NCBI RefSeq assembly: GCF_044324785.1
Contig: NZ_CP172128.1
Strand: one strand, 5' to 3'
Source: Escherichia coli
Lineage (GTDB): Bacteria > Pseudomonadota > Gammaproteobacteria > Enterobacterales > Enterobacteriaceae
DNA: 64,000 bases
A program made the position numbers. Shown here in pieces: positions 45,101 to 54,100 of this stretch. Positions within the stretch are counted from its first letter, which is position 1, and each line of letters opens with the position of its first letter.

Positions 45101-48100
45101 GGGTGCGCGACGTCGTGCGCCTGGGACGCATTCCCCACCACTCTCCGTTCTCAAACTGGAGCGCTCAGGATGACGAAGCGATTGCCGCCGCGCTGCAGCG
45201 GGTAGCGATGCTGGAGAAAAGCGAACAGGGATGGTTAAGCCTCTCCGGCGGCGAGCGGCAGCGGGTGCATATCGCCCGCGCGCTGGCGCAGAGCCCGAGC
45301 GAAATCCTGCTGGATGAGCCGACCAACCATCTGGATATACACCATCAGATGCAGTTAATGCAGTTGATCAGCGAGCTGCCGGTAACCAGCATTGTGGCCA
45401 TTCACGATCTTAACCATGCCGCGATGTTCTGCGATTCGCTGATCGTGATGCAGCAGGGGCAGATCCTCGCCAGCGGGACGCCGGAGGAGATTTTGTCCGA
45501 AGCGCTGCTGTGGGACGTTTTCCGGGTGAAAACCAAAATCGAGATCTCCCCTTACCACGGCAAAAAGCACATTCATTTCATCGTTTAGGTTGGGCGGATA
45601 TGCCTCTTTTCTCCCTGCGCCCTGCGGCAACCCTCTGGCCTCCGGTGTTACTGGGAAGCCAGTTCGTTTTTAATATTGGCTTTTACGCGGTCGTACCTTT
45701 CCTCGCCCTCTTCCTGCGCGACGACATGCTGCTCTCAGGCGGACTTATCGGCCTGATCCTCGGGCTGCGTACCTTCTCCCAACAGGGGATGTTTATCCTC
45801 GGCGGGACGCTGGCCGACCGCTATGGCGCTAAGGCGATCATTCTCGCCGGCTGCGTCGTTCGCGTCGCCGGTTTTCTCCTGCTGGCGTGCGGGGCGTCGC
45901 TGTGGGCCATTATCCTTGGCGCCTGCCTGACCGGCGTCGGCGGCGCCCTGTTCTCCCCGTCGATAGAGGCCCTGCTGGCGCGGGCCGGTACCCACAGCCA
46001 GGCCAACGGGAAACGCAGCCGCGCCGAGTGGTTTGCGCTGTTTGCGGTATGCGGTGAACTGGGAGCGGTGATCGGCCCGGTGGCCGGAGGCGTGCTGAGC
46101 GGGATCGGCTTTCGACATATCGCCCTCGCCGGCGCGGGAATATTTCTTCTGGCGCTGGCGGTGCTCTTTTTCGGTCTGCCCGCCGACGGGCACACGACAA
46201 CAACGCGCAGACGAGTCCCATGGTGGACGCCTTTGCGCCAGCCGCGCTTTGTCGCGTTTATTCTCGCCTACAGCTCATGGCTGTTGAGCTACAACCAACT
46301 CTACCTCGCTCTGCCGGTGGAGATCCAACGTTCCGGCGGCCGCGAGCAGGATCTGGCGCCGCTCTTTATGCTGGCCTCGCTGTTGATTATCACCCTCCAG
46401 CTCCCTCTCGCCCGCTTCGCCCGGCGAATGGGCGCCGTGCGCATCCTGCCGGTGGGCTTTCTGCTGCTGTCGGCTTCCTTTGCCAGCGTGGCGTTATTCG
46501 CCGCCGCCCCACCCGCCGAAAGTTGGCTGCGGTTAATGCCGGCGGCTGGTTTTGTCACGCTGCTCACCCTCGGCCAGATGCTGTTAGTGCCCGCAGCCAA
46601 GGATCTGATCCCGCTGTTCGCCGAGGAGTCGACGCTGGGCGCCCACTACGGAGCGCTCGCCACCGCAGGAGGGTGCGCGGTGTTAGCCGGGAATTTACTG
46701 CTCGGTCATTTACTTGACCAGGCGCTCATTCCGTCGCCGCAGGCGGTTTATCCCTGGCTTCTGCTGGCGCTGTTTCCGCTGTGCAGCGCCGTCGCCCTGC
46801 GGGCGATCTGTCGCCCGCTGGCGGCAACATGACGCAGAGCGGGTAACAGCCCGCTCTGGAAGTGAACAGCTGGTATCCATATTTTCAGCTAATCCTTTAA
46901 CAAAGATCCTCAGCCCTGTTTAAACCCCGGCTTGCCGTTTTTGGCTCGCCATTCCTTCACTTCTTTTACGATACCTTCAGGACTGTCCTCACGGTCATCC
47001 CTTGGATAATAAATAAGATCAGAACCATCAGGGTGTTCAGCTAATCGACGAAATTCATCCACTAATTTATCGTCATCAGCCTCAGGGTGATGCTGCCAAC
47101 TTACTGATTTAGTATATGATGGTGTTTTTGAGGTGCTCCAGTGGCTTCTGTTTCTATCAGCTGTCCCTCCTGTTCAGCTACTGACGGGGTGGTGCGTAAC
47201 GGCAAAAGCACCGCCGGACATCAGCGCTATCTCTGCTCTCACTGCCGTAAAACATGGCAACTGCAGTTCACTTACACCGCTTCTCAACCCGGTACGCACC
47301 AGAAAATCATTGATATGGCCATGAATGGCGTTGGATGCCGGGCAACAGCCCGCATTATGGGCGTTGTCCTCAACACGATTTTACGTCACTTAAAAAACTC
47401 AGGCCGCAGTCGGTAACCTCGCGCATACAGCCGGGCAGTGACGTCATCGTCTGCGCGGAAATGGACGAACAGTGGGGCTATGTCGGGGCTAAATCGCGCC
47501 AGCGCTGGCTGTTTTACGCGTATGACAGGCTCCGGAAGACGGTTGTTGCGCACGTATTCGGTGAACGCACTATGGCGACGCTGGGGCGTCTTATGAGCCT
47601 GCTGTCACCCTTTGACGTGGTGATATGGATGACGGATGGCTGGCCGCTGTATGAATCCCGCCTGAAGGGAAAGCTGCACGTAATCAGCAAGCGATATACG
47701 CAGCGAATTGAGCGGCATAACCTGAATCTGAGGCAGCACCTGGCACGGCTGGGACGGAAGTCGCTGTCGTTCTCAAAATCGGTGGAGCTGCATGACAAAG
47801 TCATCGGGCATTATCTGAACATAAAACACTATCAATAAGTTGGAGTCATTACCCGAACTAAAGAGGGGATGGCTGTTGCCCGTTCAAAGGGAAAATTGAA
47901 AGGAAAACAGCCTAAATTATCTGAAAAACAACAAAAAGAACTATGCCGTATGCGTGATACTGGCCAGTACTCTATCAGCGATCTAGCGGAACTATTTACC
48001 GTCTCGCGTGCAACGGTTTATCGAACACTTTCACGAGGACAAAAATGACCGATTTAACTACACAGCAACATCTAGTAAAAATTGTCCATGATTATGCCTG

Positions 48101-51100: not shown

Positions 51101-54100
51101 ATGCGCGAGGTTACCGACTGCGGCCTGAGTTTTTTAAGTGACGTAAAATCGTGTTGAGGACAACGCCCATAATGCGGGCTGTTGCCCGGCATCCAACGCC
51201 ATTCATGGCCATATCAATGATTTTCTGGTGCGTACCGGGTTGAGAAGCGGTGTAAGTGAACTGCAGTTGCCATGTTTTACGGCAGTGAGAGCAGAGATAG
51301 CGCTGATGTCCGGCGGTGCTTTTGCCGTTACGCACCACCCCGTCAGTAGCTGAACAGGAGGGACAGCTGATAGAAACAGAAGCCACTGGAGCACCTCAAA
51401 AACACCATCATATACTAAATCAGTAAGTTGGCAGCATCACCCAAGGGGCCAGTCTAGCAGATTATGGTGCGCAGTTATACAACAGCAGTAATGAGGAGTC
51501 TACTATTTCTCTTGTTATGCCAGATGCAATTGAATGGAACGGAAAGAATACGCCAAGACGGCAATACATGATAAAATATATTGCCGTATTTAAATATTAA
51601 AATTTATTTTTGTAGATTATCTGAATTTTCGGTGACCTTCAAGTTTTATATCGTTCATTTTATCCAGAGACTCACGTAATGATTCTATATCCCCGTCCTC
51701 AACTTTCTTTTTTGCAATATTGATTTCATGTTGTAGTTTTTTTAACTCTTCCTTATAACTATCTACAGAAACTTTATCATTAACATCTATCTTTTCAGGA
51801 ATAATATTCATAGAAGAATCTACAGATTTATCCATCATTTCAAGAGCATTTAATAGTGATGATTTATCATTGGAAGATTGTAGAATACTCATACTTTTGG
51901 CAAGAGACTGCATGTTTTTATCCAGGCCGGAAGCCAAAGATACGTTGCTGAGAGATAAAAAAATAGCTAGTACAGCACCTGAGAAAAATACCTTTTGTTT
52001 TTTCATTAATATATTCCTGTTCAAAGTTGATTATAGTTATGTCAATTTAAGTTTATTATTATGATTTTTTATTTTTGTACTATGAATCTCCTGTATGCTT
52101 ATATGTGCAGAAAATCTCATTTTATCAAGAAGAATATCAAATTTTCTCCGATACTTCTACATACTCCATCATTCATGCTCCTTTTATCCGTGCACCGTAA
52201 AACCCCGTCCTTCAGCGGGGATATAAGGCGCTGTTTTCCACCTAACCAGGTGTCTGCTGCTATTCAATGTATTGGCGGATGACGGATGCCGCCCGTTGAA
52301 GCAGGAACCCTCGTCCTTAGGGCGTGGAGGATGTCAAAATGAAAACTTGTGGTATGAATCAATCCATTCATCATCCTTTCGGATCATTGCATTCAGTATA
52401 ACGCTGGAAGAGCCTGGCAATATCACTGTATTGATGGTATTACGCCATGAATTGCTTATTTCTTAAATACGACATGCACCACAGACAGGCTTTTCCTATA
52501 CCATCGGAACGAGCGGCAAGAAATAACTTGGTGGCGTGTTTATGTTCGCGCATTGGCTTTTTAAGCAATTTACCTCTGTTCAATAACGGCAATGCCAGAT
52601 GATGTGGAATATAACCAATACCGACGTTTTGTTCTATTAAGCTGATTGCCATGGCGAAGTCAGGAACAAAAATAGGTTTTTGTCCTTCCAACAACCAGGC
52701 TTGCATTGGGGGGAAGTTAACGGAGGTATCCCGGATACAAACCGCAGGATAATGACGCAATTCACTGTTTTCTAATGGATTCCGCTTCACTGCCAGTGGA
52801 TGAAGTGGGCTGACGACAAAATCCCATTCTATTTGTCCGACCGGTTCGCTAATGATGCCTTCACTGCTTGGTACTGCATGAGGAGCACCGTAGACCAGAT
52901 CAGCACGTTTACTGTACAGCGCATCCCAGCAGCCGTTGTATACTTCAATATCTACCGTCAGTGTTGTTGATGTGAATTGCCGTTCAAAATCTTGAATAAA
53001 TGACACCAGAAAATCACCAGGTATAATATTGTTCACCGCAATTGTCAGTTCACGCTCAATACCATCGTGAATCAGCACTGTGTTGCGCTTTAATGCATCC
53101 AGATCGCGGAGAATATTTTTGCTATGTTCGATGAAGTAACTCCCCGCCGGAGATAATTCAATATATCGTCCCTTACGAATGAACAGTTCAACGCCCAGGG
53201 TTTCTTCCGCTTTCTTCAGGGTGTAACTGATAGTAGAAGGGACTTTATTTAACTGTTCGGCTGCGGTGGTGATGTTCTGGTGTCTGGCGACCAGATGAAT
53301 AATTCGAATCGTTTCGTCTGAGATGAACATAAGGCTCCCTGGTCAGTGGTAAAGTGGCTGAATCTCTCCAGATTCAGCCGTAATCATTGCCTGAGTATAC
53401 CCAGGAATTAGCGGTGTTGACTTGCCCGACTGAGAATCGCATACGCGATACATGCCACCAGAATGGAGTCAACTGAAGGGATCGTCGTCAGGGTGAATAA
53501 GCCTTTTACGGTCATAAAGCCAACCGCTGTGCCTGTGATCCATGCAGCGAATGTCAGTACTTTAACCTGTGACTCCTGAGTTAACACCGACTCTTGATAG
53601 CCATTACGGCGATAAAGGAAAAAGTCAGCGATATAAATTCCGGCAACTGGGGGAGTCGCGATACCCAGGAACAGCAGAAACGGAATAAACCACGCCATAA
53701 TATCCATACTGCCTACGATGGCGGAAAGGATACCCAGCGCAACGGTAATCTGCCATTTGGGAAAGCGGCTAAGCAGTGTGGAAACTACCAACGTCCCCTG
53801 GAACATATTGCCCGCATTACCGGTGACGCAGGCGAATATCAGCAACAGTGCTGCAGGCATAACCGCACCGAATACTGCCATAGCATTCAGTAAAGAGCCC
53901 TGGCCGCTAATGGCACTCGGCGTTGCACCCGCCCAGTATAGCAGAGGGTAGGCAACCAGAAACGTCATACCTGCGGCAATCAGAGCATGTTTTCGGTTAT
54001 GTACAAAACTACCGAAGTCGGGAAGTGTAGCAACCAGAACAATAATAGTGCCAACAACGGTGGAAACGGCGACACCTGTACTCATCTCCGCTATCGCTGC

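Follow-up and report, generated by a model that had tools for sequence, protein, structure and literature searches.

How did a gene for an exported protein of the endonuclease/exonuclease/phosphatase (EEP) family come to lie between two inverted copies of the insertion sequence (IS) IS1 on an Escherichia coli plasmid, and is it still expressed there? The question is raised by positions 47086-51441 of a 64,000-nucleotide stretch of contig NZ_CP172128.1, hereafter called the window. A first-pass annotation had noted the inverted IS1 pair, a resolvase fragment, a low-GC (guanine plus cytosine) EEP gene and IS2, all of which are indeed present, and had taken them for a composite-transposon-like unit. 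Our comparison with related plasmids and genomes leads to another interpretation. The segment is probably an eroded remnant of a Tn3-family transposon, left by the ordinary decay of mobile elements on a plasmid of poultry E. coli, whose EEP gene has likely been silenced by IS2. What looks like a toxin-carrying composite transposon would be a stack of ordinary IS events on a Tn3-family remnant, and the value of the analysis is in this respect corrective. As the EEP gene is probably off in this plasmid, it need no longer be counted among the virulence candidates of the poultry E. coli plasmid. The locus is composed of the following features:

46910-47085, minus strand: last 57 codons (C-terminus) of a colicin-E-type immunity-like gene truncated by the left IS1 (translation and open frame)
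47086-47853, plus strand: left copy of IS1, 768 bp, with insA/insB on the plus strand (open reading frames seen)
47854-48048, plus strand: 3' end of the resolvase gene tnpR with the helix-turn-helix tail, open reading frame 47869-48048 (alignment to the Providencia element described below; helix-turn-helix family matches)
48260-48290, no strand assigned: internal Tn3-family terminal inverted repeat, 31-32 nt, with 97% identity to each outer repeat of the Providencia element
48308-49171, minus strand: intact EEP passenger gene, 287 amino acids (aa) (Pfam PF03372, E=9.7e-17)
49172-49192, minus strand: remainder of the EEP 5' leader, 21 nt, with the ribosome-binding site (RBS) AAGGTG, colinear with the uncut leader in Providencia rettgeri plasmid p12100-PER (L002), the IS2-free plasmid CP029742.1 (L003) and Vibrio europaeus (L020)
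49193-50523, plus strand: IS2, 1331 bp, IS3 family, orfA/orfB intact, with the left inverted repeat (IRL) at 49193 beside the EEP gene and the right inverted repeat (IRR) at 50523
50524-50673, minus strand: displaced native EEP upstream region, 150 bp, AT-rich, with the second TTTTG, a palindrome and a promoter-like site
50674-51441, minus strand: right copy of IS1, 768 bp, inherited from the parent transposon

The parent of the segment was found in P. rettgeri. Plasmid p12100-PER contains the segment DNA, differing at 3 of 1,484 bp, as part of a complete Tn3-family element of 6,192 bp, which possesses perfect 32-bp terminal repeats and a third, internal copy of the repeat and is flanked on both sides by the 5-bp duplication AGTAA. 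The order within the element is repeat, tnpA (1015-1034 aa), a divergent gene for a 191-aa resolvase, repeat, EEP gene, an upstream region interrupted by IS1, and repeat. Since AGTAA flanks the whole 6,192 bp, we concluded that the element moved as one unit by use of its outer repeat. The core transposon tnpA-tnpR (4,046 bp), which ends in the same repeat, exists alone in Proteus plasmids at 100% identity and was also detected at 92-93% identity in plasmids of Vibrio campbellii, V. parahaemolyticus and Photobacterium damselae. On chromosome 2 of V. europaeus PP-638, a 2,156-bp derivative resides that contains the EEP gene but not IS1 and is flanked by the duplication TAATT. Besides the internal repeat and the two outer ones, it has kept a short part of tnpA (a few hundred bp); it is a non-autonomous form that must have been mobilised in trans. 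Repeats starting with GGGG, a TnpA of about 1000 aa and 5-bp duplications are typical of the Tn3 family; of the relatives, L002 has the perfect repeats, a TnpA annotated as Tn3 family and AGTAA, and L020 has TAATT. The intact Providencia element and the V. europaeus derivative thus indicate that the real vehicle of the EEP gene is a Tn3-family transposon and not the IS1 pair.

Of the transposon, the window has kept no more than the tnpR tail, the internal repeat and the cargo. The sole surviving repeat (48260-48290), which had escaped the first-pass annotation, is separated from the EEP stop codon, on its downstream side, by 17 bp. Within the transposon, tnpR spans positions 3229-3804, and the remnant sets in at position 3610. 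The tail in the window corresponds to positions 3610-3804 of the Providencia element and covers the last ~64 codons of the 191-aa resolvase, which is annotated at full length in the records L001 and L002; the open reading frame 47869-48048 comprises 59 codons.

A layout with three repeats is known from Tn1721. As in Tn1721/Tn1722, a self-sufficient core ends at the internal repeat and a third, equally oriented repeat closes the cargo, and the whole Providencia element is flanked by a 5-bp duplication. The tnpA-less derivative of V. europaeus, provided with both outer repeats, has transposed as well. Unlike Tn1721/Tn1722, the element carries a single gene for an exported EEP hydrolase and not a resistance determinant, and its tnpA and tnpR are divergently transcribed. 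Its repeats (32 bp as detected) are presumably unrelated in sequence to those of Tn1721. This three-repeat Tn3-family transposon with non-resistance cargo, of which an autonomous (Providencia) and a miniature form (V. europaeus) exist, each with target duplications, links Vibrionaceae to Enterobacterales plasmids. The components are all of known kinds, namely IS1, IS2, a Tn3-family transposon with cargo and extra repeats, non-autonomous Tn3 derivatives and exported EEP hydrolases. A description of this transposon or this EEP protein was not found in the searchable literature, and queries for Tn3 passenger genes of this type, for the repeat sequence and for the RefSeq protein accessions retrieved nothing relevant. 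A lone, perfect 26-nt copy of the terminal repeat (positions 7-32) lies at 2960-2985 of the window, far from the remnant and near toxin-antitoxin genes; it may represent a further, old end of a transposon of this family, produced by insertion or by deletion.

The IS1 copies entered this history at different times. The right copy occupies the same insertion point (junction 50673/50674 of the window) as the IS1 in p12100-PER, where the 9-bp sequence CGCGAATTA is duplicated on either side of IS1. In V. europaeus the site is empty and contains a single TAATTCGCG. The duplication in Providencia, together with the single copy at the empty V. europaeus site, indicates that the right IS1 is an inherited simple insertion. 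Since this insertion still has its CGCGAATTA duplication in Providencia, the IS1 junctions in the window are best explained as the product of a later rearrangement. In all E. coli copies, the transposon sequence ends at the right IS1 and everything beyond is lost. E. coli plasmids of the IncHI1B type have kept the left half of the transposon, though interrupted by IS66 and ISKpn26. A second IS1 in the eit plasmids removed all sequences left of transposon position 3610; this left copy truncates a gene on either side, tnpR and the immunity-like gene.

The arrangement IS1-remnant-IS1 without IS2 was found in the same context in at least 13 plasmids of poultry E. coli. Seven plasmids of PLSDB match the 10-kb locus at 99.8-99.9% identity over 87% of its length, the missing 13% being exactly IS2, and at least six further plasmids share the left part of the locus. 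After removal of IS2 and one TTTTG, the segment between the IS1 copies is identical to that of CP029742.1 (1484/1484). Plasmid p135-1 (NZ_CP080261.1; L011, 4640-5615) contains a single IS1 that directly adjoins a truncated gene for cytochrome b562, and neither the EEP remnant nor the second IS1 is left. Both the remnant and part of the cytochrome gene have gone by a further IS1-adjacent deletion, which shows the EEP segment to be dispensable. Based on these records, we propose that IS1 inserted ~150 bp upstream of the passenger and that the right transposon end was removed in E. coli by an IS1-associated deletion. In the poultry plasmid lineage carrying eitABCD, a second, inverted IS1 would have cut off tnpA and most of tnpR, leaving 1,484 bp between the IS1 copies, and in this plasmid only, IS2 would finally have entered the 5' leader, at a distance of 21 nt from the ATG.

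The passenger gene has a GC content of 38.7% (window: 50.3%), and the profile match, the four-layer alpha/beta sandwich fold and the Asn/Glu/His/Asp set for catalysis and metal binding of its product are those of the EEP superfamily. The residues N41, E69, H165, D200, N202, D238, D274 and H275 were invariant in 45 homologues down to 25% identity. An AlphaFold model (predicted local distance difference test, pLDDT, 92.2; predicted template modelling score, pTM, 0.88) was confident except for the N-terminal 22 residues. Residues 3-22 (mean Kyte-Doolittle value 1.79) formed a low-confidence helix that is hydrophobic, as is typical of signal peptides, and a comparable segment is present in every orthologue, that of Pasteurella having a lipobox. 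Possessing a positive n-region, a hydrophobic core and small residues at -3/-1, the protein is predicted to be exported by Sec, in agreement with the first-pass description of a signal-peptide-bearing, low-GC EEP-family protein. The ratio of nonsynonymous to synonymous substitution rates (dN/dS) was 0.06 in comparison with the Vibrio copy and 0.07 in comparison with a phage copy. These values reflect strong purifying selection and indicate that the protein is functional in its native hosts, where this member of a large exported EEP family without known function should be useful. The EEP protein of the window is identical to that of the IS2-free plasmid CP029742.1.

Close orthologues (48-80% identity) were found in Aeromonas, Vibrio, Aliivibrio, Photobacterium and Pasteurella as well as on a phage contig, and a genome scan detected the orthologue clade in only six representative species. 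More distant relatives (25-39%) are exported proteins widespread in Enterobacterales, Bacteroidota and Firmicutes that are annotated only as EEP or putative secreted proteins. The passenger is a low-GC cassette originating in Vibrionaceae/Aeromonas. The phage orthologue, which is 80% identical, is encoded on a Logan contig of SRR25120492 (L012, 7001-7864) and was also found in a second record (L013). With 36.7% GC in a contig of 48% GC, the gene is an addition to the phage, placed between a portal gene of P22 type and holin/endolysin genes, and is followed by a stem-loop and a T-run resembling a terminator of its own. A scan of viral contigs disclosed only one relative, a distant one (30%). 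Neither PHROGs nor PADLOC gave a match for the EEP protein, and they lend no support to a role in phage defence or to a known phage family.

What does the protein cleave? A search of the PDB with the single sequence gave nothing useful. With a family profile, the best matches were 4ruw (1e-25), 3teb (2e-21) and 3g6s (3e-20), the function of all three being not known, followed by Bacillus cereus sphingomyelinase (6e-16), nocturnin (7e-16), Staphylococcus aureus beta-toxin (1e-15), a mannosyl-6-phosphatase of Bacteroides (1e-11) and TDP2 (~1e-11). CdtB and DNase I were absent from the best 60 profile matches. A second comparison gave figures of 27.5 for 4ruw, 25.1 for 3l1w, 25.0 for 3g6s, 24.6 each for human neutral sphingomyelinase 1 and 3mpr, 19.5 for exonuclease III, 18.3 for DNase1L3, 16.8 for CdtB and ~16.5 for inositol 5-phosphatases. 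The closest similarity is not to CdtB or DNase I, and the protein does not qualify as one of these nuclease toxins, for which such similarity and, in cytolethal distending toxin loci, adjacent genes cdtA and cdtC would be expected. The choice between a CdtB-like nuclease, a sphingomyelinase and a phosphatase, which the first-pass annotation had left to such comparisons, is hence tilted away from CdtB and DNase I, the nearest proteins being uncharacterised EEPs and sphingomyelinase C.

Compared with sphingomyelinase C and beta-toxin (B. cereus SMase, S. aureus Hlb, Listeria SmcL), the similarity is significant and remote (~17-20% identity), and the mature EEP protein is ~40 residues shorter. 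Just before the final Asp-His motif, its clade has a specific insert, IPKPSDRATPESKPYA, which is polar. Sphingomyelinases have an exposed hydrophobic, membrane-binding hairpin near this position, of which the insert may be the positional counterpart. Identities to the COG3568-type structures (4ruw, 3teb, 3g6s and 3l1w) and to the Bacteroides mannosyl-6-phosphatase BT3783 are 18-25%. BT3783 is located in a polysaccharide-utilisation locus, whereas the EEP gene studied here is without such a locus. Literature searches for COG3568/ElsH returned plant papers only.

The gene neighborhoods of the orthologues give some additional clues. Aeromonas veronii and Aliivibrio share a block of two glycerophosphodiesterase genes, an importer of the ATP-binding cassette (ABC) type and a ROK gene, to which galT is added in Aliivibrio. 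On a metagenome contig, the EEP gene lies inside a sugar-ABC operon. The Pasteurella atlantica orthologue (L017, 6001-6861) has the lipoprotein signal LLGC and is co-directional and tightly spaced with genes of a capsule locus including LicD and Stealth (hexose-1-phosphate transferase), a context that hints at an action on phosphodiester-linked polysaccharide. A firm assignment by guilt of association was tried and rejected, the context being common to Aeromonas and Aliivibrio only and the neighbors in V. fluminensis and Vibrio sp. RE86 being uninformative.

As a working assignment, to which we give slightly less than even confidence, the EEP enzyme may be an exported phosphodiesterase or phosphatase that depends on Mg and has the head groups of phospholipids or phosphorylated glycans as its substrates. 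Such an enzyme would be periplasmic or secreted and metal-dependent; a phospholipid head-group or phospho-glycan substrate would be likelier than DNA, and its task in the native aquatic hosts could be scavenging or surface modification. It speaks against this assignment that the best structural neighbors are themselves without known function, that the neighborhood is conserved in Aeromonas/Aliivibrio only and differs in V. fluminensis, Vibrio sp. RE86, Photobacterium and V. nigripulchritudo, and that there are weak, partial NCBIfam matches to nucleases, i.e., xth (6e-8), the membrane nuclease MnuA and ExeM/NucH (~1e-4). The latter matches belong to the main alternative, a nuclease, which we regard as unlikely but worth retaining. 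In this case, the protein would be a secreted or periplasmic DNase degrading extracellular or incoming DNA or, in the strong version, a CdtB-like genotoxin. The EEP fold does include DNase I, CdtB, exonuclease III and extracellular nucleases, and the gene is carried on a transposon and on a phage. The lack of CdtB and DNase I among the best 60 profile matches makes the DNase an unlikely candidate and a CdtB-like toxin a very improbable one. Of the secreted effector or nuclease toxin proposed by the first-pass annotation, there remains an exported EEP protein without a characterised close relative; the nuclease-toxin part found no support.

Also improbable, in our view, is a mobile secreted phosphodiesterase with a role at the host or cell surface, for instance one with sphingomyelinase-like or phospho-glycan-cleaving activity, which would have been spread as a cassette from aquaculture-associated Vibrionaceae into poultry and human Enterobacterales by the three-repeat Tn3-family transposon, its miniature form and a phage. 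If this were true, the IS2 insertion described here would either have knocked out that factor naturally or act as a switch in its regulation.

IS2 has the ends TAGACTGGCCCC... and ...GGGGCAAATCCA and contains orfA and the 301-aa orfB on the plus strand, reading away from the EEP gene. Its terminal repeats were detected in part (33 nt, 79%); size, reading frames and target duplication are those of IS2, and it is up to 100% identical to annotated IS2 copies in plasmids. A perfect 5-bp duplication, TTTTG, at 49188-49192 and 50524-50528 marks it as a simple insertion and had not been recorded in the first-pass annotation. That annotation had placed IS2 about 22 bp upstream of the EEP start; the adjacency stands, the spacing being 21 nt (49172-49192) with the AAGGTG RBS retained. 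The junction between IS2 and the EEP gene had no match (0 records) among 72,556 plasmids and 5,426 complete E. coli genomes. Since, moreover, the sibling plasmids match the locus save for IS2, we concluded that the insertion is recent and private to this plasmid.

Before the insertion, a native promoter-like site, TTATCA-16-TATGAT (50581-50554; 9/12 matches), had its -10 region ending 46 nt before the ATG. A 21-nt palindrome, TGATAGTAAATTTACATATCA (50527-50547), was located between this -10 region and the RBS and is probably an operator for a regulator. Both the promoter-like site and the palindrome are kept in the V. europaeus copy (L020, upstream of 10001) despite the diverged surrounding DNA. 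Further TGATA/TATCA-like motifs occur upstream of the palindrome. A reading of the palindrome as a Fur box or Pho box was rejected, the match by eye being weak. IS2 inserted at that edge of the palindrome which is nearer to the gene and moved it, along with the promoter-like site, 1,336 bp away from the RBS and the open reading frame.

Can IS2 substitute for the displaced promoter? In IS3-family elements including IS2, the outward -35 region that forms fusion promoters is located in the IRR (review PMC9330008). The end facing the EEP gene is the IRL, and a consensus scan at the junction found no site with at least 9/12 matches. A laxer scan near the junction gave two 8/12 matches. The -10 region of one ends 14 nt before the ATG, by which transcription would start inside or after the RBS; the other is a poor 4+4 match. 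The displacement of the native promoter-like site, the IRL facing the gene and the lack of an adequate site at the junction suggest that EEP expression has been lost or strongly reduced. Silencing or a strong reduction of expression by IS2 is the likeliest outcome of this arrangement and would be one more decay step of a dispensable passenger. The first-pass annotation had expected the native promoter to be replaced or a hybrid promoter to be created; the gene has been separated from its native upstream region, and the hybrid promoter is not borne out by the facing IRL and the scan.

Some points weigh against loss of expression and against the scheme of decay. The weak 8/12 matches inside IS2 could still give some EEP transcript, as could read-through from the right IS1, the genes of which point toward the EEP gene. 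Furthermore, the EEP reading frame is intact, so that silencing, if real, is recent and reversible. Finally, the order of the IS1 events has been deduced from a handful of records. The opposite effect, i.e., activation of the EEP gene through a fusion promoter at the end of IS2 or an internal outward promoter, for which the insertion would have been selected, appears quite improbable. Fusion promoters of IS2 do raise the expression of ampC, acrEF and neoR, their outward -35 region being supplied by the right end (PMC9330008). The present insertion resembles the cases of ampC and acrEF in that a full-length IS2 with a 5-bp duplication resides directly upstream of a gene in AT-rich DNA, leaving RBS and reading frame intact. 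In contrast to them, the left end adjoins the EEP gene and no adequate -10/-35 pair is created, so that disruption is expected; in addition, the insertion occurs in one plasmid only and thus gives no sign of selection. Two other sequences related to IS2 were noticed in the window, a second IS3-family element at 35783-36980, only 73% identical to IS2, and a short IS2-like fragment (76%, 128 nt) at 42490-42616.

There remains the IS1 pair itself. The two copies are 100% identical and inverted. A repeat search gave arms of 769 nt, the extra base being a chance match, and a perfect inverted repeat of IS1 length cannot be due to chance. Both copies have the ends GGTGATGCTGCC... and ...GGTAATGACTCC and reading frames of 91 aa and 167 aa, as expected of IS1, an element of 768 bp with insA/insB frames and imperfect terminal repeats of about 23 bp. 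The left copy is flanked by cagcctcag and cgaactaaa, the right copy by cgcgaatta and caaggggcc. A 9-bp duplication was absent from both copies of the window under simple, composite and post-inversion pairings of the flanks, in line with the first-pass annotation, which had seen no matching duplications; the outer flanks of the unit, cagcctcag and caaggggcc, differ. Composite transposons based on inverted IS1 copies are known, and the segment is flanked by two intact, identical copies, but joint movement of the enclosed EEP gene by both of them as one unit, as implied by the composite-transposon-like label, is extremely improbable in view of the missing duplication at the unit and at either copy, of the one constant context (eitABCD on one side, cytochrome b562/LysR on the other) in all plasmids with both IS1 copies, of the origin of the right copy as a simple insertion with its own duplication in the Tn3-family parent, and of the left copy cutting two genes, which fits an adjacent deletion or recombination. 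The inverted IS1 pair is a by-product of the decay of the Tn3-family remnant and not a transposon built to carry the EEP gene. Just outside the right IS1, the sequence AAGGGGCCAGTCTA (51443-51456) resembles the reverse complement of the IS2-like left-end tip TAGACTGGCCCC, which suggests that IS1 may have truncated an IS3-family element there.

The window starts with an IncFII repA and is near-identical to poultry E. coli plasmids, e.g., to pLH10-b-1-A with 100% identity over 23 kb left of the locus. The left neighbors of the locus are an eitABCD-type iron ABC system and a gene of the major facilitator superfamily (MFS); on the right, a cytochrome b562-like gene, a LysR regulator, a cytosine permease and a carbamate-kinase cluster follow. 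The EEP gene is not mentioned in the paper on eitABCD plasmids. The immunity-like remnant at 46910-47085 (minus strand) lost its N-terminus to the left IS1, and its frame continues open as far as the end of that IS1. It matched none of the NCBIfam models, and its resemblance to Im-protein sequences makes it a putative member of the colicin-E/pyocin-type immunity family. Elsewhere in the window, a copy of IS1414 with an embedded frame of astA (EAST1 heat-stable enterotoxin) is located at 8715-9923 (minus strand; annotated by way of L053, 8714-9922), and a second astA copy is present in a sibling plasmid. The window also contains a gene for an autotransporter of 1165 aa (13917-17414) and a raffinose/sucrose utilisation cluster (~25600-35300).

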